From sequence record PZ445551.1: a stretch of 64,000 nt of DNA; one strand, written 5' to 3'. The stretch's first letter is position 1, and each line of letters starts with the position of its first letter. The translations under genes were made by a program, and so were the position numbers. Under the pieces are notes generated by a model. That model saw only the letters and a program-made list of their open reading frames with translations, was not told the DNA's origin and ran no database searches. Source of the stretch: a phage. Positions 3,846-62,204 of this stretch are shown piece after piece.

Positions 3846-3904
3846 TTGACACCGATCCCCCATATGGTATTATTTACCACGTAGGCGGGAAATGGTTTCC
3901 CGCC
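3846..3904 (+). promoter_or_regulatory. promoter + conserved 5'-UTR stem-loop cassette, copy 5
   Basis: TTGACA 3846-3851, -10 TATTAT 3868-3873, hairpin GGCGGGAAA-TGG-TTTCCCGCC 3884-3904. Confidence 0.6.
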
Positions 3905-3927
3905 AGGTAATCAAAAAGGTAAATACT

Positions 3928-4317
3928 ATGCGCAACCTGGTTTCTGTTTCTAACGTTGAAAAATTTCAATCCTTGCAGGGTATCGTTAACAACGTAGCGC
4001 CTTTTTTAGTCAATGGCTTGATTGCAAAGATGAAAAATAAACATCATGCGGCATGGTCTGCTTACTGCTTTGATAATGATGAAAAAGCGGCTGAAATGAT
4101 GTTAGATATGCTGTTAAATAGTGTAGAAACATCTTTACCGGAAAACATCGCAGAAGAGATCACCTATCGTTATAATATGGCGATCACTTACCAGGAGGTT
4201 GCGCAATTTAATATGATGGATGATGACGAACAACAGGATCAGGAAATGTTTTGGGAGTATGCAGATCGTCAATCGGCTTTTGATGAAAAGTTAGCGATGT
4301 ATTATAACGAATATTAA
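3928..4317 (+). CDS. hypothetical acidic protein (129 aa)
   Basis: track ORF 3892..4317 starts inside the hairpin loop; trimmed to ATG 3928. Confidence 0.5.
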   Translation: MRNLVSVSNVEKFQSLQGIVNNVAPFLVNGLIAKMKNKHHAAWSAYCFDNDEKAAEMMLDMLLNSVETSLPENIAEEITYRYNMAITYQEVAQFNMMDDDEQQDQEMFWEYADRQSAFDEKLAMYYNEY

Positions 4318-4333
4318 TACACGGTAAAAGAAA

Positions 4334-4357
4334 GGGGCGCACTAAGCGCCCTTTTTT
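4334..4357 (+). terminator. rho-independent terminator
   Basis: ggggcgc-actaa-gcgccc hairpin followed by TTTTTT. Confidence 0.65.
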
Positions 4358-4703
4358 GTATTCTTTTTTCACGATGGAAGTAACACGTAAAGAATAAACG
4401 TAAAAGGTGGTGTAAAACAGCCTAAAACCGATTATAACCGCTTAAACAAGGTAGTAATGACTAATCACCTTGCCAGGATGAAAAAGCTGTTATAAAGCTA
4501 TTTAGAGCGTTTAAAGCACATAGGAAATAATTTGCTTTTTATCTTGCCTTTTATCCTGCTTTTGATTATTATTATGGAACGGGCGGCACCTGGGGACAGG
4601 GGAAGGTAATCACCGGAAGATCCCGCTATATATTGATAGCTAATATCTATTAAACAACAAAACATCAAAGGAATAAACTATCAAATCTTTACAATTCTAC
4701 CTA

Positions 4704-5516: not shown

Positions 5517-5722
5517 TACCTAAATAAAGATGATAGCTTTTACCTATCAAAAACGTTCACCGAAAAAAGTGAATAGATCGCGGTATCGAGCTAATCAAGG
5601 AGCAGATGAACAACCATACCATGAAGATCATAAGGCGCTTACAACGTGTTTTAGACCGCTTATTTTTAATTTCTCAATGTAACTATCTGGCAAAAACAGC
5701 CTTTTTCTTGTCTTTCCTCTTA

Positions 5723-5740
5723 AATGATAATCATTCTTAT
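5723..5740. promoter_or_regulatory. Fur-box-like site AATGATAATCATTCTTAT
   Basis: near match to the enterobacterial Fur box GATAATGATAATCATTATC. Confidence 0.35.
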
Positions 5741-5780
5741 TTATAGCTGATTATTTATGCAATAAACTGAATAATGCAAT

Positions 5781-5797
5781 AATGATAATCATTCTTA
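5781..5797. promoter_or_regulatory. Fur-box-like site AATGATAATCATTCTTA
   Basis: second copy, preceded by ATAATGCAAT. Confidence 0.35.
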
Positions 5798-6090
5798 ACT
5801 TATGACCATCTAACCTATAAAATAATAAGTTATCTAACTAAATTAAAACTAATTATCTCACCTTTATTTATAACTTACTGTTACTATCTCATTGATAACC
5901 TTATATTAAACAACAATAACCAATATAAATCATTACTAAGCTAAATATAATCTATCTAACCTTTAAAACTATAACTATAATCTATCGAATTGTTGCACAA
6001 AGTAACTATTAAATTGTTAGTAACATTACTAAATAATTAATATCCTATCTATTTATGATCTAATCTTTATCTTCCTATCTATTACCTAAA

Positions 6091-6121
6091 TAATCATTTC
6101 ATACAGTAATCATTTCATACA
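6091..6121. repeat. tandem direct repeat AATCATTTCATACA x2
   Basis: two adjacent near-identical 15-16 bp units. Confidence 0.5.
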
Positions 6122-6157
6122 ATAATTATAACAAGAAATATAATTCGCAAGCGTATC

Positions 6158-6192
6158 ATTAGCAGCCTATGCCGGACACATAGGCGGCTAAT
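6158..6192. repeat. 14-bp inverted repeat ATTAGCAGCCTATG / CATAGGCGGCTAAT around 7-nt spacer
   Basis: one mismatch; GC-rich island in AT-rich context. Confidence 0.5.
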
Positions 6193-6663
6193 AATAACGC
6201 AACTACACACCCCACATAATAACCATCACCGATAGTTATTATTTGTGCTTATGTAGCTTGCAACAATTGCAAGCGCAACAATATACATGGTATATTGTAT
6301 CCCTTACATTGTTGCGGTGCGTTATTATTAGCTAATGTTTAGAACATTGGCTATAATATAAGCTAAGTAATAAGCTATGCAATAATAAACATGGTGAATA
6401 ATGACATTGATGATCATAATGCGCCACCTTCCAGGGGGCGCTATGTGAACACAAAGAAATCTTTCTTGTCAAGAAAAAATATTGCCATTATTGCGCAAAA
6501 TTATTTATATCTGAATAGATGATTTTTCATACTATTGCCCCATATAACATACCTCATTTGTTGAGCATAGTTATAGCCTATTTGTTGAGCCTACTTTCTT
6601 AAAAGCGCAATAAATCAGAATTATCTTGATTTTTAGTCTGTTTTATAGTATAGAAAGTATGCA

Positions 6664-6679
6664 AATGATAATCATTATC
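6664..6679. promoter_or_regulatory. Fur-box-like site AATGATAATCATTATC
   Basis: 16/16 identity to the 3' 16 nt of the Fur-box consensus. Confidence 0.4.
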
Positions 6680-6849
6680 AGCTATCTTCCACGGGTAGCA
6701 CTATTTCACGCCAGATCATTTCATTTGGCAAGGTGTATATAGATGTTTAGACTTGCCAAGCCATTGATTTACTTAGAATTTATCTGTTTTGTTGTGAGTA
6801 GAGCCTTTCTTGCTCAGAAAATAATCAAAAGTCTTATAAGTCATTGAAT

Positions 6850-6874
6850 GATAATGCAAATGATAATTATTCTC
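6850..6874. promoter_or_regulatory. Fur-box-like site GATAATGCAAATGATAATTATTCTC
   Basis: repeat of the ATAATGCAA-ATGATAAT unit seen at 5771-5797. Confidence 0.35.
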
Positions 6875-7236
6875 ATTGATATTTGAGGGGGACGGTCGGC
6901 AGAAATCGGGGGGCGCTGAAAATCGCGTTAAGCACCTCTCGCAAGCGAGCAGTATTTTGCGGCAAGTTATTGATATTATTGGCTTTACGCTTATGAAAAG
7001 GGGGTGTGTCGAAATAAATCGGGTATACCGGAAAATTTTTGTGGCATAGATATTTATTTGTCTATATTATGTACAAAAGGGTGTGTTAAAAATATTAGGT
7101 ATATATAGAATAATTGATAGGGAAATCCTATACTAATTCCTCCATTAATGATGTTTCTATGTTACTGTTCTTGTAACAGATGAAAAGACGCTGTATGATG
7201 TGTGGCATGAAACGTAAATTTATAAAGGAGTCTGAT

Positions 7237-7596
7237 ATGTGTGTTCCTCTTAGCAGTCCACTGCTGTTAGAATTTTACAAAGCATGGATGGAAGATCATT
7301 CCTCAATGCATCGTGAGAATGTTGGTTTGTGTAATTGCCTTATGGATTACCTGGCAACCACTATGTCAAAGAAAAAACCTACGGAAGAAGATATAGAATA
7401 TTTCAAGATGGTTCGTAGCAAAACGCTGGAAGAGATGAAACTGCAATTCACGTGTGCTGGGCTATCCTCCTTTCTACCCTTTAATTATGATCTTCTGTGT
7501 TATGAAGATGAAGGTAAGACACATTCTTGCCATACCAACCCAAAGAGATTGCAGTGGGTGAAAGATCGTATTGCCGATTCATGCAAGGGTGTGTAG
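7237..7596 (+). CDS. paralog family member 1 (LLxFYxxW...GLCxCL...QFxxAGL...LPFN...RxQWVxDRI)
   Basis: track ORF 7180..7596 trimmed to ATG 7237 after RBS aaggag; shares motif with 7743, 10034 and 11312 genes. Confidence 0.55.
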   Translation: MCVPLSSPLLLEFYKAWMEDHSSMHRENVGLCNCLMDYLATTMSKKKPTEEDIEYFKMVRSKTLEEMKLQFTCAGLSSFLPFNYDLLCYEDEGKTHSCHTNPKRLQWVKDRIADSCKGV

Positions 7597-7597
7597 A

Positions 7598-7753
7598 ATG
7601 TTGGAATTGATTGGGATAGTTTGGTTAATGATAAAAGCAGGTTTCGTCGGTTTCGGACTTCTTATAATTTTGTGTATGTTCCTTAGTGCAATACAGGCAT
7701 TCTTTTATCTGCTAGGTAGAATACTTAAGTTGGGAGGTGATAATGAAAAGTAA
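7598..7753 (+). CDS. small membrane protein (51 aa)
   Basis: track ORF 7571..7753 trimmed to ATG 7598; two hydrophobic segments. Confidence 0.4.
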   Translation: MLELIGIVWLMIKAGFVGFGLLIILCMFLSAIQAFFYLLGRILKLGGDNEK

Positions 7754-8111
7754 TATTCCGTTGAGTAGTGCAGCTTTAATACGATTCTATAAAGCATGGA
7801 TTGCCAACCATCCTGCAATGAATCGCACAACGAGTGGCTTATGTGGTTGTCTGGTAGATTATGTAGATGATTTTGTTGGTGAGATAACTAGAGAAGAAGA
7901 TAAAAGATGGCGTGATCGTTTGTTGGATAGTTTGAAATACGAAATGAGGAAACAATTTACATGTGCAGGACTGGACTACAATCTTCCGTTCAATGCAGAT
8001 TGCATGGATTACCTTTCAGAGTGTATAGACTTGGCGTGTCATACCAACACGTTACGTCTTCAATGGGTGAAAGACAGAATCGAAGATGCAAATAATGCTT
8101 GCATTGAATAG
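7743..8111 (+). CDS. paralog family member 2
   Basis: track ORF (GTG 7737) trimmed to ATG 7743 after RBS gggaggtg; conserved GLCGCL, QFTCAGL, LPFN, LQWVKDRI. Confidence 0.55.
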   Translation: MKSNIPLSSAALIRFYKAWIANHPAMNRTTSGLCGCLVDYVDDFVGEITREEDKRWRDRLLDSLKYEMRKQFTCAGLDYNLPFNADCMDYLSECIDLACHTNTLRLQWVKDRIEDANNACIE

Positions 8112-8181
8112 AAATGTCTGTACACTGTGTTCCATAAGATATACAATATCGCGCATAACAAACTACTAATGAGAGGTGTAA

Positions 8182-8640
8182 ATGAAAACTGTATCTTTGT
8201 ATCTTGCTAACACGGAGCGTGTACATAATCTTGTAAAAGAATGCGGTGTGAGTGTTCAATTTAATACAGGAAAGCCTTCCGTGGTGACAGGCAGTGAGAT
8301 ATGTGTTATTGATTTCCTCAATGAATATTTTCGTGGAAAACCTATTGCTCGTCACTTCATTCAAGAAATGCGAGATGTACTACAGGCTTATGAATTCTAC
8401 CCTGAAGTTTGTGAACGCTATGAAACGATTCTTAGCTCTGTAGAAGATCCAGATACTAGTGAAACAGGTGCTTCCCACTTGCTGTGGATGTTGAATGAAA
8501 TTCAGGATGGGTGTAATGGTATGTCTGAAACCAAACGCCATCGTTGGCTAGGCTATATTCAGGGTGTTATGGTTATGAAAAACCTTATTACAGTGAATGA
8601 TGAACGTAACGCTACACGCCCAGTCTTTAATGGAGCATAA
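8182..8640 (+). CDS. hypothetical protein (152 aa)
   Basis: track ORF; RBS gagaggtg. Confidence 0.55.
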   Translation: MKTVSLYLANTERVHNLVKECGVSVQFNTGKPSVVTGSEICVIDFLNEYFRGKPIARHFIQEMRDVLQAYEFYPEVCERYETILSSVEDPDTSETGASHLLWMLNEIQDGCNGMSETKRHRWLGYIQGVMVMKNLITVNDERNATRPVFNGA

Positions 8641-8641
8641 C

Positions 8642-8857
8642 ATGAAAAGCATTAGGGTGTGTATCGAAAATAATTGTGGTTATCTGGGGTTGACACACGT
8701 CGCTTTCCCTCTTATATTGGATGCCGATATAGCTTACAGCGGAGTTGCTTATGTGTCATTCAAAACAATGAGCCAAGTACCTGGCTGGAATTGGGAAGTG
8801 GTTGATGTTGTTGAAGGAGAAGACTATGTTTTCCTTCCACACGAATATACAGTTTAA
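8642..8857 (+). CDS. hypothetical protein (71 aa)
   Basis: track ORF 8597..8857 trimmed to ATG 8642 immediately after upstream stop. Confidence 0.45.
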   Translation: MKSIRVCIENNCGYLGLTHVAFPLILDADIAYSGVAYVSFKTMSQVPGWNWEVVDVVEGEDYVFLPHEYTV

Positions 8858-8871
8858 AAGAGGAAAAGAAG

Positions 8872-9048
8872 ATGGATAAACAAACTACTATGTACTTAGT
8901 AACAAAGAATACCCCAGGCTGGAGCCAATGCAGCACTGTTCCTTATAAGATCTGTGCAACATTAGAACTAGCACAACGTGCAGAAGCAGAAGTGAATGCC
9001 ATGCAATACAGCTATGGTGAAATCATTCCTTTTACTCTTGAACAATAA
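8872..9048 (+). CDS. small hypothetical protein (58 aa), not in track
   Basis: ATG 8872 after RBS aagaggaaaag; fills gap between track ORFs. Confidence 0.4.
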   Translation: MDKQTTMYLVTKNTPGWSQCSTVPYKICATLELAQRAEAEVNAMQYSYGEIIPFTLEQ

Positions 9049-9059
9049 GGATTTGTGTA

Positions 9060-9512
9060 ATGTTTGAAATTGGTAAAGTGTATCGTTTTAAGAACCCATC
9101 TTATATCCGTAAGTTTGCTAACGTGTCTGAGTGCAATAGCAGGATTGCTTCTTTCTTAGGTGATTCTTATTTTCGTGTATTAGATGTGGATGATTGGTAT
9201 GGTGTCACTGCTTTGCAATCCTTGGCAGGAGAACAAGAAATTATCGCTCAAAATGAAGGAGACTTTCTTCAGTGTTACACGTTGCTTGCAAAAAGTGAGT
9301 TTGAGTATTTTGTAGAAGTCTTAGAGGAAGCACCAAAAAGTAAACACGAAGAGAAATACCTGCTTGTAGTGGATGGAGTTCCGATCATGGAAACCATCTC
9401 CCGTGAGGAAGTTGAAAAAGAGGCGAAACGTTACAAACTGGATCGTACACAGAGTGTAGTTGAAATCTATTCTCTTGTTGGTGTTGCAGATATTAGTGTG
9501 AACATCGTATAA
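9060..9512 (+). CDS. hypothetical protein (150 aa)
   Basis: track ORF. Confidence 0.55.
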   Translation: MFEIGKVYRFKNPSYIRKFANVSECNSRIASFLGDSYFRVLDVDDWYGVTALQSLAGEQEIIAQNEGDFLQCYTLLAKSEFEYFVEVLEEAPKSKHEEKYLLVVDGVPIMETISREEVEKEAKRYKLDRTQSVVEIYSLVGVADISVNIV

Positions 9513-9515
9513 TAT

Positions 9516-9728
9516 ATGTGTAATGACAGATACATTCTCCGTGTATCTGATAAGTCTCCTATGTTTGACTGGCGGGGCTGGTGGCTACTAGCTCCGATGC
9601 AAGGTCTGACAGACGTGGAAAAGGAGGCTTATGTGTATACAAAAGAAGAGATAGAAGATAGCCTTTATTTGACAGATAACATTAAGAATGGTATCTTTGA
9701 GTGTAAATTGAAAGGAGAGGAAGAATGA
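9516..9728 (+). CDS. hypothetical protein (70 aa)
   Basis: track ORF; tight spacing. Confidence 0.5.
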   Translation: MCNDRYILRVSDKSPMFDWRGWWLLAPMQGLTDVEKEAYVYTKEEIEDSLYLTDNIKNGIFECKLKGEEE

Positions 9729-10024
9729 CTATTACAGAAAAACTGCGCTGTATTGCAAAGCAAAGTGGAGAAGGTTTATGGTTTCCTATTGAGGAAATTA
9801 TTCAGGACTGTTATGATCAGGCTAAGACTGGCAAATACTCCAAAGCATTTAAACCGTCTGTTTTCGGTTTGGATGACTATCCAAAAAATGAACAAGCAAA
9901 GAAACGACAAGTTGATTTGATTGATCTTGCTATGGAAGCACTACGAGAGCATGGGCTTAGTAAGGTGTATGCTTTAAACACCAAAGAGGGCTTTGTAGAT
10001 TCAGTGATCGTAGACTGGTATTAA
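9725..10024 (+). CDS. hypothetical protein (99 aa)
   Basis: track ORF; start overlaps upstream stop. Confidence 0.55.
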   Translation: MTITEKLRCIAKQSGEGLWFPIEEIIQDCYDQAKTGKYSKAFKPSVFGLDDYPKNEQAKKRQVDLIDLAMEALREHGLSKVYALNTKEGFVDSVIVDWY

Positions 10025-10033
10025 GGAGAAGCC

Positions 10034-10402
10034 ATGCAAGAAAATAATAAAGTGTGTAACATGAAAAGCAGCCCCTATTTGCTACAATTTTATGAGTGGT
10101 GGTTAGAACAAGAAGATACAAACTTTAGCAAAAAGCATTATGGTCTTTGCACGTGTCTTGTAGACTTCTTATACAATATTGCTTGGATAAAAGATGTTGA
10201 GAATGTAGCAAACCTCCAGTCCTCTGTACGAGAGGAAATGAAGGAACAGTTTAAGAAAGCAGGTTTGAACCATTTACACCCATTTAATACAGATTTCTCA
10301 CATTACTTTACGGAAACAGAGTTAGGCATTGCACACCTTAACAAAGAACGTGTACAATGGGTGATTGATCGTATTCGTGATATGGAGGAATATAATGGTT
10401 AA
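10034..10402 (+). CDS. paralog family member 3
   Basis: track ORF; LLQFYEWW, GLCTCL, QFKKAGL, HPFN, VQWVIDRI. Confidence 0.55.
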   Translation: MQENNKVCNMKSSPYLLQFYEWWLEQEDTNFSKKHYGLCTCLVDFLYNIAWIKDVENVANLQSSVREEMKEQFKKAGLNHLHPFNTDFSHYFTETELGIAHLNKERVQWVIDRIRDMEEYNG

Positions 10403-10604
10403 GTTTAAAACTTTCTGTGCAATCTCTGTTTGTCTTATTCTTGCATACGTGTTATTCTCTAGTATCATTCGTTTAGGTGAGTATATGGCAAGAGAAGCTC
10501 GTGAAAGTGAAGCTAAAAAAGAACAGTGCATCGTGTTAAAGCACCAAAGGGATGCTGAAAAATTTCTTGAACAGGATTGTGGGCGCTATGTGAATTATAA
10601 TTAG
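10395..10604 (+). CDS. small membrane protein; paralog of the 15393 gene
   Basis: track ORF 10365..10604 trimmed to ATG 10395 after RBS ggagg; N-terminal TM helix then KEQCIVLKHQRDAEKFLEQDC. Confidence 0.5.
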   Translation: MVKFKTFCAISVCLILAYVLFSSIIRLGEYMAREARESEAKKEQCIVLKHQRDAEKFLEQDCGRYVNYN

Positions 10605-10613
10605 GAGGGAAGT

Positions 10614-10862
10614 ATGTTAGATATTTTTACCTTTGATCGTGTTGGTACACCGATTACCGAAGAAGAACGTACCAAAATTGAACAAGAATTGGATGCTTTA
10701 CGTGCGTCTCTTACAGACACAGCCTCACTACAACGTGAAGCTGCACATCTCACAGAGATCACTGGTATTCAGTGGAGCACGGAGTGGGTTGTAATTACAA
10801 TTGAAGCGGATATTTGGGGACATGAAGAGACGCTACGTACCGGAGTAGTAACGGTTTGGTGA
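10614..10862 (+). CDS. hypothetical protein (82 aa)
   Basis: track ORF; RBS taggaggg. Confidence 0.55.
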   Translation: MLDIFTFDRVGTPITEEERTKIEQELDALRASLTDTASLQREAAHLTEITGIQWSTEWVVITIEADIWGHEETLRTGVVTVW

Positions 10863-10908
10863 TAGATGTTATTCTTTTGTGTTTCTTGATATATAAATAG
10901 GAGGGTTT

Positions 10909-11133
10909 ATGGTAAAACGTCTGGAATGGGATGCGTGTACTGCTCACGCTTGTCACTGTAATATTGTGGAAGATCCTAATGGAGAAATGGTGTATTATGA
11001 GGATTACGAAGCATTGCATAATGCTGTGATCGCTTTACTGGATGATATTAGCTCACGCTATCCAGGACAACAGTTTACGTGTCCACATATCCAACTATTA
11101 GCCAAACTTACGGAGTATCCAAGTGTTTCATAA
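10909..11133 (+). CDS. hypothetical protein (74 aa)
   Basis: track ORF; RBS taggaggg. Confidence 0.55.
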   Translation: MVKRLEWDACTAHACHCNIVEDPNGEMVYYEDYEALHNAVIALLDDISSRYPGQQFTCPHIQLLAKLTEYPSVS

Positions 11134-11134
11134 T

Positions 11135-11302
11135 ATGGGTGTCCCTGAACAACTCCTCTTTATTGTAGGATTAGTGGGCTTATTAGCGGCTGGAGCCAAA
11201 GCCGCTTCTCACACGCATCACATAATGTTAAGATTTCTGTTCCTACTCCCTTCTATCCTTGTATTATTAGTCATATTGATTGATAACATTTTTCACAATT
11301 AA
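11135..11302 (+). CDS. small membrane protein (55 aa), not in track
   Basis: ATG 11135; hydrophobic segments; weak RBS. Confidence 0.3.
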   Translation: MGVPEQLLFIVGLVGLLAAGAKAASHTHHIMLRFLFLLPSILVLLVILIDNIFHN

Positions 11303-11311
11303 GGAGAGGTT

Positions 11312-11896
11312 ATGAGTAAAATTATACCAAGCAGTTATGAATTATTGCAGTTTTATGTATATTACTTAGACTGGGTTAATAGATCGAATGTTAAAGACAA
11401 TGCGATGTTTAGTAAAAACATCTGTTTAACAGAAAGTATCTTCCGTTATTGGCACACAGGCAGAAAGTGTACACACAGTGAAGCTATGCGTATTGTAGGT
11501 GAATACCTGGAGCAATTGCAAAAAGCAGAACTTCCTGTCCTTCACCCATTCAACGAATCTAAAGAAGAATTAGAACAAGAGTGTAGAGAAGGTAAGTGCC
11601 ATTTAAATGAAAAACGTATCGAATGGGTGAGGCAACGTTTAGCCGATGCAGGAAAGACTCCTAGTGACTCTGACTATACGTGGTATGATGTAGAGGGTTT
11701 AGTTCAAGGTTTTGAGGCTTGTGCTATAGATAATACCAACTTTGCCAAAGTTTTATGTGAGGCTTATGATCTGGCAGATAAAATCCGAAATCACGGATGG
11801 AAACAAGAGCATAAAGAATCATATGAACGCCTTGACAAGATTTTCAAACAGATCTATTCTAACCACAAGAAGATGTTCCAAATGGAGGATGTGTAA
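11312..11896 (+). CDS. paralog family member 4 (extended C-terminus)
   Basis: track ORF; RBS aaggagagg; LLQFYVYYLDW, HPFN, IEWVRQRL. Confidence 0.55.
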   Translation: MSKIIPSSYELLQFYVYYLDWVNRSNVKDNAMFSKNICLTESIFRYWHTGRKCTHSEAMRIVGEYLEQLQKAELPVLHPFNESKEELEQECREGKCHLNEKRIEWVRQRLADAGKTPSDSDYTWYDVEGLVQGFEACAIDNTNFAKVLCEAYDLADKIRNHGWKQEHKESYERLDKIFKQIYSNHKKMFQMEDV

Positions 11897-12582
11897 TGAA
11901 AGAGATTATGTTTGAAGGGCATTGTTACGAAGTTCCAGACAATGCAAATTTCATGGCTCGTGATATCACTGGAGATGTGTTCTGGTTTGAAGATGAACCT
12001 ATGTTTTCTTCGAACAAACACTGGTTTTCACAACAATCTTCTTCGGAAAATATGACTTTTGGCTACGTAGAGTCTAAAGTACGTTGCAAAGCAGCTTCTT
12101 CTTTGGTAAAAATTTCCCAAGATGACCAAGAAAATACTCAAGATGTTGTTAGTGCGCTACTGAAGTACATTGCAGAACTTGAGAAGAAAATTAAAGAAGC
12201 AGAAACTAAGGTGAAAGCACGATCAGCAATCATCGAAACTATGTCTGAACGTATTTTAGAACTAGAAGATTTGTGTGGAGAGGCTTATCAAGTGGTTGGT
12301 GCGCTGGCGTGTGAAGCACAAATGTTTGAAACTTCAGAACAAGTTTCGCATATGTTAGATAATTTGAGTGAATGTAAAATGATTCATGATGATGTATTGC
12401 CATTTTGTTGCAATGTTAACAAAACAGAGCAAACACAAGATTCAGAAACAGTTTATGTTCCGCTAATGTGTGTTCCAGATCATCTAAAAGGTGTATTCTC
12501 TTGTAAATGGTCGCTGTTGAGCGTTACTAATTGTGGTGAAAACTATTCTGCCAACATTGAATTGCTAAAACACGTTAAATAA
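11896..12582 (+). CDS. hypothetical protein with central coiled-coil (228 aa)
   Basis: track ORF; ATGA overlap with upstream gene. Confidence 0.55.
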   Translation: MKEIMFEGHCYEVPDNANFMARDITGDVFWFEDEPMFSSNKHWFSQQSSSENMTFGYVESKVRCKAASSLVKISQDDQENTQDVVSALLKYIAELEKKIKEAETKVKARSAIIETMSERILELEDLCGEAYQVVGALACEAQMFETSEQVSHMLDNLSECKMIHDDVLPFCCNVNKTEQTQDSETVYVPLMCVPDHLKGVFSCKWSLLSVTNCGENYSANIELLKHVK

Positions 12583-13208: not shown

Positions 13209-13375
13209 TGCAAACATTTTTTATCGACAAGTTCAATAAAAGTATGAACACGTGGATGGCAACATTCACTATGCAATTTGCGTCATTTAAAGAAGCTCAA
13301 GAATGGTGCGATCAACACAAGGATTTTGATTTTTACTATCAAGTTAATGCAAACCTTTCTCCAGAGGAGAAATAA
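13208..13375 (+). CDS. hypothetical protein (55 aa)
   Basis: track ORF 13187..13375 trimmed to ATG 13208 after RBS gggagg. Confidence 0.45.
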   Translation: MQTFFIDKFNKSMNTWMATFTMQFASFKEAQEWCDQHKDFDFYYQVNANLSPEEK

Positions 13376-13376
13376 T

Positions 13377-13721
13377 ATGTTGGCTGATATTGAAATCCTT
13401 ATGTACCGACAAGGTATGATCAAAATGTGGCTAGATTCTTTTAGCAACATATACTGCACAGTACGATCAGCAGACGAGCGTAAAACGCTTATTTTATCTG
13501 CTATTGTTGATAAACAACGTTTCTTCAAAGAAATTTTGCAAACAGGCTTCTCCGATGCAGGAGTAGAGATTGCAACGCTTAGTCTTGGAGTGCTGTCTTA
13601 CTTGGAATCCGTTGTTTTATATGTCTTCTCTTTAGAAGAACACTTGCAATTTGAAGCATTAAAACTTATCTTAGATGCTGCAATTGACATAGAACAAAAT
13701 CGAATTGATTCTTTTGAATAA
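13377..13721 (+). CDS. hypothetical protein (114 aa)
   Basis: track ORF 13278..13721 trimmed to ATG 13377 after RBS gaggagaaa. Confidence 0.5.
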   Translation: MLADIEILMYRQGMIKMWLDSFSNIYCTVRSADERKTLILSAIVDKQRFFKEILQTGFSDAGVEIATLSLGVLSYLESVVLYVFSLEEHLQFEALKLILDAAIDIEQNRIDSFE

Positions 13722-59616: not shown

Positions 59617-59692
59617 GGTTCCATAGCTCACTGACGAGAGCGCACACCTCATAAGTGTCGAGGGCAGGGATTGTAACCCTGGGGAACCTCCA
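59617..59692 (+). tRNA. tRNA-Met(CAT) (or Ile2), atypical T-loop ATTGTAA
   Basis: manual cloverleaf: acceptor GGTTCCA/GGGAACC, D-arm GCTC..GAGC, anticodon loop CTCATAA, CCA encoded. Confidence 0.6.
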
Positions 59693-59723
59693 TTTAAAAG
59701 GAGGTGCTATGCATCTCCTATAT

Positions 59724-59809
59724 GCAAGTGTGGTGGAATTGGTGATACACATTGTGCTTAAAACGCAACGCTTAAATGCTTGAGGGTTCGAATCCCTCCA
59801 CTTGCACCA
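59724..59809 (+). tRNA. tRNA-Leu(TAA), type II
   Basis: acceptor GCAAGTG/CACTTGC, anticodon loop CTTAAAA, long variable arm, T-arm GAGGG-TTCGAAT-CCCTC. Confidence 0.75.
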
Positions 59810-59824
59810 ACACCTAAAAATATC

Positions 59825-59853
59825 TTGACATTTACTTAGTTTTTTGTTATAGT
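59825..59853 (+). promoter_or_regulatory. sigma70-like promoter TTGACA-17-TATAGT
   Basis: read directly; 11 nt upstream of the tRNA-like element. Confidence 0.5.
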
Positions 59854-59864
59854 TACTATGAAAA

Positions 59865-59946
59865 CGGGGTGTATCTCACCTGACTTCTAATCAGGCGTTA
59901 ACCGAGTAATTGGAGTATGCAGGTTCGAATCCTGTCACCCCGGCCA
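59865..59946 (+). tRNA. atypical tRNA-Arg(TCT)-like element lacking a D-arm
   Basis: perfect acceptor CGGGGTG/CACCCCG, T-arm GCAGG-TTCGAAT-CCTGT, anticodon hairpin CCTGA-CTTCTAA-TCAGG, but only 7 nt between acceptor and anticodon stem and a 23-nt insert before the T-arm. Confidence 0.4.
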
Positions 59947-60009
59947 AAAAGTTTTAAAAACTACTTGACAAGCAAGATAGTTTTATGTTAGATTTAAAGT
60001 ATAATAACT

Positions 60010-60099
60010 GGAAGGTAGGGCGCAGCGGTGCGCAACCAGGTTTGAACCCTGGCCCATTGTAGCGATACGGTGATGGTTCGACTCCATTATCTTCCTCCA
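60010..60099 (+). tRNA. tRNA-Ser(TGA), type II
   Basis: acceptor GGAAGGT/ATCTTCC, anticodon loop TTTGAAC, long variable arm, CCA encoded. Confidence 0.75.
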
Positions 60100-60117
60100 A
60101 ATTCTCTTAGGAGCTTT

Positions 60118-60270
60118 ATGAATTATAAAACTATTGGACAGGTTGTTACCGGAGTTAAGATTGTAAATAATAAAGTTGTTTATGAGTATTCTAATCTTCA
60201 ACAATCTGAAGATGGTAAGAATATTCGTATGGTAAAAACAGAACAAAAAGATTCCGGTTGTTTTGAATAA
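60118..60270 (+). CDS. small hypothetical protein (50 aa) embedded in tRNA array
   Basis: track ORF 60070..60270 trimmed to ATG 60118 after RBS aggag so it no longer overlaps tRNA-Ser. Confidence 0.45.
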   Translation: MNYKTIGQVVTGVKIVNNKVVYEYSNLQQSEDGKNIRMVKTEQKDSGCFE

Positions 60271-60278
60271 TTAAAAAC

Positions 60279-60364
60279 GGTAGATTGGTGAAATGGTAGC
60301 CACAACAGTTTGCTAAACTGTCGTCGGAAACGGCGTGTAGGTTCAAGTCCTACATCTACCGCCA
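60279..60364 (+). tRNA. tRNA-Ser(GCT), type II
   Basis: acceptor GGTAGAT/ATCTACC, anticodon loop TTGCTAA, long variable arm, T-arm GTAGG-TTCAAGT-CCTAC. Confidence 0.8.
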
Positions 60365-60498
60365 AGTTATCTTTAATGTAGCTTGTAATCTTACTTTAGC
60401 AGAGTAAATCTTCGGCAAGTGGCGGTAACCACTTTACCGATACCCCAATACTTCATAGCTAAGTGCCGCAAACACTGGCTATTTTAAAGATAATTTAT

Positions 60499-60574
60499 AC
60501 ATCGTTAGCTTAGTTGGTAGAGCAAGGGGCTTTTAACTCCAAGGTCGAAGGTTCGAATCCTTCACGATGTACCA
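60499..60574 (+). tRNA. tRNA-Lys(TTT)
   Basis: acceptor ACATCGT/ACGATGT, D-arm GCTT..GAGC, anticodon loop CTTTTAA, T-arm GAAGG-TTCGAAT-CCTTC. Confidence 0.85.
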
Positions 60575-60579
60575 AACAC

Positions 60580-60666
60580 GTAGGTATCGCATAGCGGCAA
60601 TTGCTGGAGACTGTAAATCTCCTGCCCTTCGGGGCTTCGTTGGTTCGAGTCCAACTACCTGCACCA
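60580..60666 (+). tRNA. tRNA-Tyr(GTA), type II
   Basis: anticodon arm GGAGA-CTGTAAA-TCTCC, variable-arm hairpin GCCCC-TTCG-GGGC, T-arm GTTGG-TTCGAGT-CCAAC. Confidence 0.8.
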
Positions 60667-60673
60667 AATTAAA

Positions 60674-60758
60674 GATGGATTGGCCTAGTGGTTGGGCGAC
60701 GGACTGTTAATCCGTGAACGAAAGTTCTAGCAAGGTTCAAATCCTTGATCCATCGCCA
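60674..60758 (+). tRNA. tRNA-Asn(GTT) with unusually long (15-nt) variable arm
   Basis: acceptor GATGGAT/ATCCATC, anticodon arm ACGGA-CTGTTAA-TCCGT, variable hairpin GAAC-GAAA-GTTC, T-arm CAAGG-TTCAAAT-CCTTG. Confidence 0.7.
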
Positions 60759-60837
60759 AATAGTGCTTGTAGAGTTAATAGAAACCTCTAGAATTTTCTA
60801 GAATTGTAGGTATCAAATCCTACCAAGCAAATATTTT

Positions 60838-60912
60838 GCTCCTATCGTATAACGGCTATTACGGTTGCCTTGTAAGCAACTTATCAGGGTTCGAGTCCTT
60901 GTGGGAGCACCA
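60838..60912 (+). tRNA. tRNA-Thr(TGT)
   Basis: acceptor GCTCCTA/TGGGAGC, anticodon arm GTTGC-CTTGTAA-GCAAC, T-arm CAGGG-TTCGAGT-CCTTG. Confidence 0.8.
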
Positions 60913-60935
60913 ATTTTAACTCTAAAGGAGTGTAT

Positions 60936-61259
60936 GTGACAGAAAAAGAGTTAGAGAAATATTTTAATATCAATGTTTTCGATGGTTTTGATGATATTGA
61001 AGATGTTGAAAGATATTATGAAGTAGAGTTAGATAAGGATAACATTGTAATTCTTTCTGCCACTTATGATTGTGCATATTATGAAGGCGAATCTCACGTT
61101 TATTTTTATGATATGAAAACATCTTTGTTTTATGAAGTACACGCATATCATTGTTCTTGTTATGGCTTAGAAGGTCAGTGGGAACCTGAAGAAATAGGTG
61201 ATTTGGACTTTACTATTGCATATCTAAACAGACGTGGTTCATCTACTATTTTAAAATAA
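60936..61259 (+). CDS. hypothetical acidic protein (about 107 aa) embedded in tRNA array
   Basis: track ORF 60930..61259; likely GTG start at 60936, 5 nt after RBS aaggag. Confidence 0.5.
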   Translation: MTEKELEKYFNINVFDGFDDIEDVERYYEVELDKDNIVILSATYDCAYYEGESHVYFYDMKTSLFYEVHAYHCSCYGLEGQWEPEEIGDLDFTIAYLNRRGSSTILK

Positions 61260-61273
61260 ATATCAAAAGCCTC

Positions 61274-61303
61274 TTGACAAAGGGGCTAATAATATGTTAG
61301 AGT
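61274..61303 (+). promoter_or_regulatory. sigma70-like promoter TTGACA-18-TAGAGT
   Basis: read directly; about 12 nt upstream of tRNA-Gly. Confidence 0.5.
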
Positions 61304-61314
61304 AATATTATTAA

Positions 61315-61389
61315 GCGGGTATAGTGTTAATGGTAGCATATGAGGTTTCCACCCTCCAGGTGCAGGTTCAAGTCCTGTTACTCGCTCCA
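61315..61389 (+). tRNA. tRNA-Gly(TCC)
   Basis: acceptor GCGGGTA/TACTCGC, anticodon loop TTTCCAC, T-arm GCAGG-TTCAAGT-CCTGT. Confidence 0.8.
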
Positions 61390-61488
61390 AGATTATTTAA
61401 ATGGAATCGTTAGAGAAAATTTCTCTTTTCGCTCATGGTTTTCTCCTTCAAACTCTAGCGGTTCTTTTTAAGTGATTTTTTAGTTTAT

Positions 61489-61563
61489 TGGAGATTAGCC
61501 TAGTGGGAAGGCAACGGCCTTTGAAGTCGTGATGACTAGGTTCGATTCCTAGATCTCCAGCCA
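61489..61563 (+). tRNA. tRNA-Gln(TTG)
   Basis: acceptor TGGAGAT/ATCTCCA, anticodon arm ACGGC-CTTTGAA-GTCGT, T-arm CTAGG-TTCGATT-CCTAG. Confidence 0.8.
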
Positions 61564-61570
61564 ATATTTA

Positions 61571-61646
61571 CAGTGCGTAGCGCAGTTGGTAGCGTGGGAG
61601 CCTTGGACGCTTCAGGTCGCAGGTTCGAGTCCTGCCGCACTGACCA
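61571..61646 (+). tRNA. tRNA-Pro(TGG)
   Basis: acceptor CAGTGCG/CGCACTG, D-arm GCGC-AGTTGGTA-GCGT, anticodon loop CTTGGAC, T-arm GCAGG-TTCGAGT-CCTGC. Confidence 0.85.
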
Positions 61647-61651
61647 AATTT

Positions 61652-61726
61652 GCAGAGATAGCTGAGACGGATTAGTGCTACCCTGAAAAGGTAGAAAGGA
61701 TGGATCGTTACCATCTCTCTGCACCA
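61652..61726 (+). tRNA. tRNA-Phe(GAA), atypical T-loop ATCGTTA
   Basis: acceptor GCAGAGA/TCTCTGC, anticodon arm CTACC-CTGAAAA-GGTAG, T-stem GATGG/CCATC. Confidence 0.75.
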
Positions 61727-61803
61727 AATAACACCATCCAAGGAGTAGACTTGGTTAACTGTCAATAGCACATTGAGGCTTCTTACAGTGGTGTACTTAT
61801 TAT

Positions 61804-61888
61804 GGCTAAGTGGTGGAATGGTATACACGATACGCTTAGAACGTATTGCCCCAAGGGATTGTGAGTTCGAGTCTCACCTTAGCTACCA
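61804..61888 (+). tRNA. tRNA-Leu(TAG), type II
   Basis: acceptor GGCTAAG/CTTAGCT, anticodon arm ATACG-CTTAGAA-CGTAT, long variable arm, T-arm GTGAG-TTCGAGT-CTCAC. Confidence 0.8.
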
Positions 61889-61903
61889 AATTATTACAGA
61901 TTG

Positions 61904-61982
61904 TGCGGGATAGAGGAGTCTGGTCGTCCTCGCCAGTTTCATATGCTGGAGATCATCGGTTCGAATCCGATTCCCGCCTCCA
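61904..61982 (+). tRNA. tRNA-Met(CAT) (second CAT tRNA; elongator Met, initiator or Ile2)
   Basis: anticodon arm CCAGT-TTCATAT-GCTGG, T-arm ATCGG-TTCGAAT-CCGAT, acceptor with mismatched 1-72 pair. Confidence 0.7.
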
Positions 61983-62040
61983 ATAAATACCTCCCTTCTG
62001 GTGTAATGATTAAGTTACATTGACACTTCAAGGAACTCAT

Positions 62041-62123
62041 AGCCGGGTAGATTTAAAAGAGTATGGTACTCAATATGGCTCCAAACCATAGATCAAGGGG
62101 TTCGATTCCTCACCTTGCTGCCA
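62041..62123 (+). tRNA. atypical tRNA-Trp(CCA)-like element (possible pseudo-tRNA)
   Basis: anticodon arm TATGG-CTCCAAA-CCATA and T-loop TTCGATT present, but 11-nt insert between acceptor 5' strand and D-arm and imperfect acceptor/T stems. Confidence 0.3.
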
Positions 62124-62128
62124 ATTAT

Positions 62129-62204
62129 TGTGGTATCGTACAGATGGTTAGTACACTCGACCGATAATCGAGAAACAACGGTTCGACTCCGTTTACCACG
62201 ACCA
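62129..62204 (+). tRNA. tRNA-Ile(GAT)
   Basis: acceptor TGTGGTA/TACCACG, D-arm GTAC-AGATGGTTA-GTAC, anticodon arm CTCGA-CCGATAA-TCGAG, T-arm AACGG-TTCGACT-CCGTT. Confidence 0.8.

Follow-up and report, generated by a model that had tools for sequence, protein, structure and literature searches.

What could four related genes, gathered near the leading end of a phage genome and assignable to no recognised family, be doing there? The question is raised by a stretch of phage DNA of 64,000 nucleotides (sequence record PZ445551.1), the whole of which is hereafter called the window. A first-pass annotation of this DNA had pointed to open reading frames (ORFs) at 7237, 7743, 10034 and 11312 whose products share a collinear set of motifs, and had suggested that they are early genes serving host takeover or anti-defence and evolving in an arms race. 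Comparison of the four genes with one another and with their relatives identified them as members of a large family of phage proteins, apparently built on a helical domain, and led us to the tentative proposal that these proteins bind host factors at the onset of infection.

Four paralogous genes in the window

Bases 7000-12000 of the window were 100% identical to Escherichia phage VivaForever (PP925843.1) and matched many phages of the genus Justusliebigvirus (Stephanstirmvirinae, phi92-like) at 95-97.5% identity; by sequence, the window phage is a Justusliebigvirus and a phi92-like coliphage. All four ORFs were found on the plus strand as first reported. Copy 1 (7237-7596) encodes a protein of 119 residues, copy 2 (7743-8111) one of 122 residues, copy 3 (10034-10402), which is the equivalent of Phi92_gp006 according to the annotation of phage PATM, likewise one of 122 residues, and copy 4 (11312-11896), the equivalent of Phi92_gp010, one of 194 residues. 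Each of the four ATGs is preceded by a strong Shine-Dalgarno sequence (AGGAG, GGAGG, AAGGAG and AAGGAG for copies 1 to 4, respectively), which is missing from an alternative, longer start of copy 1 at 7180. In every relative's record examined, these genes and their homologs are annotated 'hypothetical protein'.

Upon alignment with MAFFT, the four proteins proved to be collinear with 23 invariant columns, and the motifs noted at first pass were recovered, namely SS..L..FY..W, GLCxCL, QF..AGL, LPFN and CH.N..R.QWV.DRI. In pairwise BLASTP comparisons run with SEG filtering and composition correction, copies 1 and 2 displayed 47% identity (E 8e-35), copies 1 and 3, 40% (E 4e-26), copies 2 and 3, 38% (E 1e-20) and copies 3 and 4, 31% (E 1e-11). 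Copy 4 aligned with copies 1 and 2 in the C-terminal half only, at 34-40% identity (E 4e-9 and 2e-8, respectively). The description of the family as a diverged one thus stands, but the identity of 25-35% originally given needs to be revised to 31-47%, copies 1-3 falling somewhat above the earlier range. Since the E-values of 8e-35 to 2e-8 were obtained with SEG filtering, the similarity does not reflect low complexity; it is far above chance, and the sequence comparisons confirm the four genes as true paralogs.

The family domain of copy 4 corresponds to residues 1-117 of the protein (about 11312-11662). This copy alone carries a C-terminal extension of 77 residues (about 11663-11893), which is lineage-specific and helical, and for which no match was found in Pfam. 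When a profile of the four proteins was run against all six-frame ORFs of the window, only these four were matched (next E 0.46), and four family places were likewise found by tblastn in the complete VivaForever genome. At the DNA level, the only similarity left between the paralogs was a stretch of about 20 nt at RLQWVKDRI, so that the duplications must be old.

A predicted helical domain known so far as anonymous clusters

Searches of Pfam-A and NCBIfam with the four proteins gave no match reaching cut-off. A scan of 100 diverse family members, submitted individually to Pfam at E<=1, returned singleton noise only, with no Pfam family matched by more than one member, and PADLOC-DB yielded one weak partial Cas12d match for copy 3 (E 0.007, 12 bits) and none for the other copies. 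The weak matches to Crl, ATG11, DUF4995 and Cas12d were rejected as singletons below threshold. A sequence search of all PDB chains reached an E-value of 0.27 at best. The family is carried by PHROGs as phrog_2510, phrog_27059 and phrog_6418, all of them labelled 'unknown function'. All four proteins matched phrog_2510 (E 4.5e-22, 6e-24, 1.5e-25 and 7e-18 for copies 1 to 4, respectively), and copy 4 in addition matched phrog_27059 over residues 1-194 of 194 (E 9e-140). Three homologous genes in the record of phage muut are tagged VOG7392 (pVOG). As these entries hold the same proteins as the family, the existence of the clusters was already on record; the entries, however, split the family into several clusters, come without name, fold, domain boundaries or function, and draw no link to N4 gp3, to multi-domain fusions or to the EaA cassette described below. 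The earlier view that the proteins cannot be assigned to a known family was thus borne out, and the family is known so far only as anonymous clusters, with neither a curated domain entry nor a solved relative.

The motif set of the wider family extends over about 105 residues (SS..L..FY, GLC.NL, EM..QF..AGL....PFN and (C)H.N..R..WV); it is complete in copies 1-3, and in copy 4 it is complete but for the G-L of GLC. An AlphaFold2 model of copy 3 prepared from a 27-sequence alignment consisted of six helices, with a mean predicted local distance difference test (pLDDT) score of 89.2 and a predicted template modelling (pTM) score of 0.83. In this model the AGL....PFN motif is predicted to lie on a long ordered loop, and the domain of about 105 residues is, as modelled, entirely alpha-helical. 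The N-terminal domain of copy 4 was modelled with the same fold (pLDDT about 90), and the three helices of its C-terminal extension scored low (pLDDT 53-73). Foldseek comparison of the copy 3 model with all PDB chains up to April 2026 returned nothing with E<3, and comparison with BFVD returned only uncharacterised phage proteins of the same family.

Conservation was analysed in an alignment of 100 diverse members with a mean column identity of 26%, residues being given here in copy-3 numbering. Y20, C39, P83, F84 and R106 were invariant, and S13, L16, F19, G37, L38, E68, Q72, F73, L78, N103, W109 and V110 nearly so. The conserved hydrophobic residues are spaced i, i+3, i+4, i+7 on helices 1, 3, 4 and 6, and the conserved residues found at helix starts, several of them polar, include S13, G37 and N103. 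Judging from this helical spacing and from the helix-start positions, the bulk of the conserved residues seem to serve in determining the fold. Variability was greatest between helices 3 and 4, in a segment rich in insertions and deletions. The core motifs were the same from Rhizobium and Burkholderia phages to coliphages.

Six polar residues, Y20, C39, E68, Q72, N103 and R106, are kept across very distant phages, and it is on these that the main rival to a protein-binding role builds. It holds that the family consists of ligand-binding proteins, for instance sponges for a nucleotide immune signal, or of small enzymes, in which the polar cluster and the AGL....PFN loop would form one pocket common to all paralogs and phages. 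The complete or near invariance of the six residues in an alignment otherwise as divergent as this one speaks for such a pocket. So does the resemblance to known phage sponges, which work as oligomers, in domain length (about 105 residues), mild acidity (median pI 5.2), early position and frequent tandem fusions, and a fixed small-molecule target would yield purifying selection as seen in the window genes (see below). No catalytic-type motif is kept universally, the His of CH.N being replaced by Tyr or Ser in several members. We consider both this alternative and the common pocket that it entails unlikely. A zinc site and a Cys-His catalytic dyad were each considered and rejected, since many members have other residues in place of the second Cys of GLCxC and of the Cys-His in CH.N.

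Occurrence of the family

When 1.84 billion representative proteins were searched exhaustively with HMMER, 836 clusters (defined at 50% identity) reached E<=1e-3 and 206 reached E<=1e-10. The second and third homolog searches, which were word-indexed, returned only 14 and 2 proteins, respectively. Most members are stand-alone proteins of 100-125 residues. Copy 3 matched 178 phage records by tblastn. The lineages with members comprise Stephanstirmvirinae, Vequintavirinae, Ounavirinae, Skatevirus, Schitoviridae and Rhizobium Autographiviridae, and members were also found in Delftia, Achromobacter and Burkholderia phages, including the jumbo phage BcepSaruman. In Citrobacter phage Tr1, nine genes encode ten family domains within 12 kb. 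Going by these matches, the domain does not occur outside the phages and prophages of Proteobacteria, both virulent and temperate, and fusions of the EaA type point to P22-like or lambdoid prophages as carriers. Protein P0043 (2115 residues, 15 'stretches') was discarded, its match to the LPFN motif being repetitive and spurious.

The family includes gp3 of phage N4 (NC_008720, 1214-1528), which fits the family profile over the whole domain with an E-value of 2e-20. N4 gp3 has the GLC, PFN and CHLN..R..W motifs of the family and lies in the early region, where it adjoins gp1 and gp2. It differs from the window proteins in that it is present as a single copy and is very divergent in sequence. 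A literature search on N4 gp3 and on the PHROG identifiers found no published function.

A homolog in Escherichia phage SusanneMuster_Bas79 (locus L022) was located by tblastn on the plus strand at 4001-4231, within an ORF at 3896-4243. The record gives a minus-strand coding sequence (3974-4477) over the bases of this homolog, which is probably a mis-called gene.

Position of the genes at the genome end

The 342-bp left direct terminal repeat (DTR-L) annotated in phage BME3 maps to positions 6661-7002 of the window, with 96.5% identity over 342 bp. By this homology, 6661-7002 marks the physical left genome end, which thus lies inside the window just upstream of copy 1. Copy 1 starts about 235 bp past the terminal-repeat homology; no gene lies between it and the left end, and a non-coding stretch of 1.5 kb (5700-7180) precedes it. 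Several Justusliebigvirus records are deposited permuted or as 'circular'.

Family members take up comparable positions in other phages. In N4-like contigs, a member is found between gp2 and RNAPII in the early region. Rhizobium phage TM38, a relative of T7, carries two members at 260-1511 (genes 2-3), upstream of the kinase gene, and phiWec179 carries three in tandem after about 1.5 kb without annotated gene. In agreement with the suggestion that the window genes are early ones, the terminal repeat and the N4-like and T7-like homologs make it very probable that they occupy the earliest-expressed part of the genome. These genes are among the first to enter the cell, and their position strongly suggests that they are expressed early. 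One alternative would be a nucleic-acid-binding protein or a regulator of the transcription machinery that helps phage middle transcription to take over from host or early transcription; we regard this as very unlikely.

Turnover of copies under purifying selection

Orthologs were compared across 13 Justusliebigvirus loci. Copies 3 and 4 were present in all 13, and copies 1 and 2 varied, with both genes found in six loci, a single gene in four and neither in three, copy number thus ranging from 2 to 4 across these close relatives. Copy 1 was represented in about 10 of the 13 loci, in three of them only as the N-terminal part of a chimera, and copy 2 was absent from phiWec187, PD114 and SD2. 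The chimeras were those of JohannJBalmer, AV123 and BME3 (loci L007-L009, about 1450-2100), in which the single gene joins the N-terminal part of copy 1 cleanly to the C-terminal part of copy 2, with the crossover in the common RLQWVKDRI motif, an instance of unequal crossover. In phage muut, the only one of the two genes left is of the copy-2 type and differs at its N-terminus. In EmilieFrey and PATM, the small ORF that separates copies 1 and 2 in the window (7598-7753) has been lost, and the tail of copy 1 is fused to a remnant of it; the ORF is lost along with recombination events.

Pooled Nei-Gojobori ratios of nonsynonymous to synonymous differences (pN/pS) were 0.20, 0.28, 0.08 and 0.11 for copies 1 to 4, respectively, to be compared with 0.05-0.22 for 14 neighbouring genes; these are gene-wide values, the substitutions being too few for site-specific selection tests. 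All four copies are under purifying selection, which is slightly more relaxed in copies 1 and 2, and gene-wide positive selection was rejected. The arms-race evolution put forward in the first-pass annotation was therefore not upheld on the timescale tested, given that pN/pS is like that of the neighbours, that the duplications are ancient and that the core motifs are kept. Turnover is visible in gene content, not as gene-wide positive selection.

A portable domain found in fusions and EaA-type proteins

Tandem arrangements of two domains were found in about 12 of the best 150 representatives, and one representative displayed three. Examples of such fusions are WNL63488 of Citrobacter phage Tr1 (two domains) and gp339 of BcepSaruman (three domains). 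In rV5-like phages (Av-05), a DUF551 domain is followed by the family domain. A further protein, P0015, is a deletion variant in which the copy 4 domain is joined to the C-terminus of the product of an unrelated ORF (13278-13721) at a 'DAG' microhomology.

In the metagenomic proteins P0101, P0127, P0134, P0136, P0153 and P0162, the domain is found within 'beads on a string' proteins of the EaA/Ea22 type. P0153 and the EaA protein of Salmonella phage SEN22 (locus L018, 5001-5936) have a near-identical N-terminal segment of about 44 residues and the YAAPPAP and PAPVVPE linkers in common. The slot between these linkers is occupied in SEN22 EaA, which ends in a C-terminal DUF551 module, by a dATP/dGTP pyrophosphohydrolase (PF04447, E 5e-43), and in P0153 by the family domain. 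Such a swap between the same linkers shows the domain to be a portable cassette. 'EaA protein' was rejected as a name for the domain, since SEN22 EaA is devoid of it and only the flanking modules are common.

The Ea22/EaA-type proteins of lambdoid and P22-like phages combine a common N-terminal module with portable domains that vary, and the family domain is one such 'bead'. The variable C-terminal domains of Ea22 have been described as portable and possibly host-protein-binding (PMC10834534), and the cassette behaviour seen here agrees with that description. The window proteins, in contrast, are stand-alone, devoid of the N-terminal module and coiled coil of Ead/Ea22 (IPR025153, PMC10834534), and the Pfam search with the four of them gave no match to Ead_Ea22. 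The C-terminal domain of lambda Ea22, moreover, adopts a mixed alpha-beta fold (PMC10834534), unlike the family domain.

A domain that sits as a swappable cassette between Pro/Ala-rich linkers, that is freely duplicated, fused and deleted, and that in P0015 is found joined to an unrelated downstream ORF might have no specific host target at all. It could instead be a stable helical 'filler' or oligomerisation domain, easy to duplicate and maintained by recombination in mosaic early regions. Purifying selection acts on every copy, however (pN/pS 0.08-0.28), all 13 genomes have retained copies 3 and 4, and specific polar residues are kept across phage families. The three observations argue for a selected function, and we hold the 'filler' explanation to be highly improbable.

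Possible role at the onset of infection

The interpretation that we favour, tentatively and at somewhat less than even odds, is that of an early protein without enzymatic activity which binds a host factor, for the purpose of host takeover or anti-defence. The four genes, among the first to enter the cell, would be expressed at the onset of infection. Each paralog would provide a small, non-enzymatic and largely accessory binding module, in which a conserved helical scaffold would turn its variable surfaces, formed by the stretch from helix 3 to helix 4 and by the region of helix 5, towards a host protein or complex. At infection onset this target would be neutralised or redirected, with takeover or counter-defence as the outcome. 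Separate paralogs would address separate targets, which would account for the presence of 2 to 10 copies per genome, each under purifying selection. The idea of a binding module derives from the stable helical scaffold, the variable segment, the portability of the domain, its multi-copy state and its position at the leading end. An accessory nature is suggested by this position, by the varying copy number and the chimera among the close relatives and by the ten domains of phage Tr1. Small early genes at the leading end are the source of many known immune inhibitors and host-takeover factors, and it appears reasonable to infer from position a role of this kind for the family.

Several points weigh against this proposal. 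The literature yielded no functional or expression data for any family member, and no experiment on the inhibition of defence by family members was found there. The pN/pS ratios are low and no different from those of neighbouring genes, and such low values are not usual in classic fast-evolving inhibitors. The universal presence of copies 3 and 4 in the genus is as compatible with a core function as with an accessory one. The kept polar residues could mark a ligand-binding or catalytic site and, with it, one common target rather than diversified ones. Finally, residues are taken as buried or exposed from helical periodicity, not from model coordinates.

In a broader version of the proposal, the new fold would define an unrecognised and wide class of phage counter-defence or takeover effectors. 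Through the polar cluster, these would all bind a single target universal among Proteobacteria, be it a signalling molecule of immunity or a piece of conserved host machinery, and the multiple copies and the two- and three-domain fusions would reflect obligate oligomers. We see this as quite unlikely; if it were true, N4 gp3 and the EaA cassettes would share the same activity.

Two known anti-defence systems invite comparison. T7 Ocr (gp0.3) is a small, acidic, helical protein encoded at the leading end of the genome. The family resembles Ocr-like class I or pre-early proteins in that its members are small, acidic, helical and encoded at the leading end, but its proteins are much less acidic (pI 5.2-6.1), are multi-copy and have no fold similarity to solved structures. 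The family does not qualify as an Ocr-type DNA mimic, for which a very acidic, DNA-like surface and the Ocr fold would be required. The second is Atd1, an anti-TIR protein reported for Justusliebigvirus and Phapecoctavirus (PMC11724313) and a MazG-like (p)ppGpp pyrophosphatase (bioRxiv 10.1101/2022.06.09.495361). The same phage genera encode both Atd1 and the family, and identity of the two was rejected because the family has no match to MazG or to any other Pfam entry.

The family is not so much a surprise as a good subject for experimental follow-up. It offers good experimental material in that it comprises 836 clusters from virulent and temperate phages and includes a gene of the model phage N4. 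Further assets are a confidently predicted fold without solved relative and the absence of the family from Pfam. Natural isolates with 2, 3 or 4 copies are available, some of which are phages of the BASEL collection (Bas61, Bas62) used in defence-system screens; phiWec187, PD114 and SD2 have two copies, JohannJBalmer and BME3 three, and EmilieFrey (Bas61) and VivaForever four. The definition of a single domain also joins several 'hypothetical' clusters with part of the puzzling EaA/Ea22 mosaic proteins, and were the function to turn out mundane, a clean new domain definition would still have been gained.

Neighbouring genes and other features of the window

All neighbours of the four paralogs in the window are dark matter. 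Small hydrophobic ORFs of 51-69 residues adjoin three of the four paralogs (7598-7753, 10395-10604 and 11135-11302). The first of them, recognised by hydropathy, encodes 51 residues on the plus strand between copies 1 and 2 (3/13 loci). The presence of these ORFs raises the possibility that the family domain is a membrane-associated module and cooperates with the small hydrophobic proteins beside it, for example in superinfection exclusion or by modulating envelope or injection functions. In keeping with this possibility, a membrane segment is naturally fused to a copy-2-like domain in P0032, a cluster of nine sequences. In an exploratory set that included the window and Tr1, moreover, a hydrophobic segment was found in 7 of 21 neighbours and in 7 of 92 other genes (p 0.004). 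This enrichment failed, however, in a hold-out of eight other phages, where membrane proteins made up none of the 15 neighbours and 16 of 145 genes elsewhere, and a membrane-protein partner was rejected as a general property of the family. The family domain itself contains no hydrophobic segment, and several relatives do without the small ORF that separates copies 1 and 2. Of all the alternatives considered, we find a membrane-associated module the least probable.

Two further ORFs lie among the paralogs. A Cys-rich ORF of 74 residues between copies 3 and 4 (10909-11133) weakly matched phrog_3592, which comprises Lar-like restriction alleviation proteins (E 6e-4). An ORF of 150 residues at 9060-9512 has a counterpart in Eryne annotated 'goF mRNA metabolism modulator'. 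This ORF matched phrog_2980 weakly at its N-terminus (E 3e-6) and had a PHROG of unknown function as its best match; the annotation looks over-stated.

Upstream of copy 1, the non-coding stretch 5700-7180 contains a 17-mer, AATGATAATCATT(C/A)T.., repeated four times (5723-5739, 5781-5797, 6664-6680 and 6859-6875), one copy of which is located right at the start of the terminal-repeat homology (6661). The repeat closely resembles the Escherichia coli Fur-box consensus, GATAATGATAATCATTATC. Two Fur-box-like sites within 3 mismatches were seen, 0.06 being expected. The repeats could represent iron- or Fur-responsive early promoters, or else a terminus-recognition element.

Elsewhere in the window, 15 tRNA genes are clustered on the plus strand at 59617-62204, and GC skew indicates strand switches near 20 kb and 56 kb. 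Among the database records, four 'Campylobacter phage' entries with Campylobacter jejuni as host (MG065639, MG065645, MG065656 and MG065689) display about 97% identity across the region to Justusliebigvirus phages of E. coli, and their host label is probably due to contamination or mislabelling.

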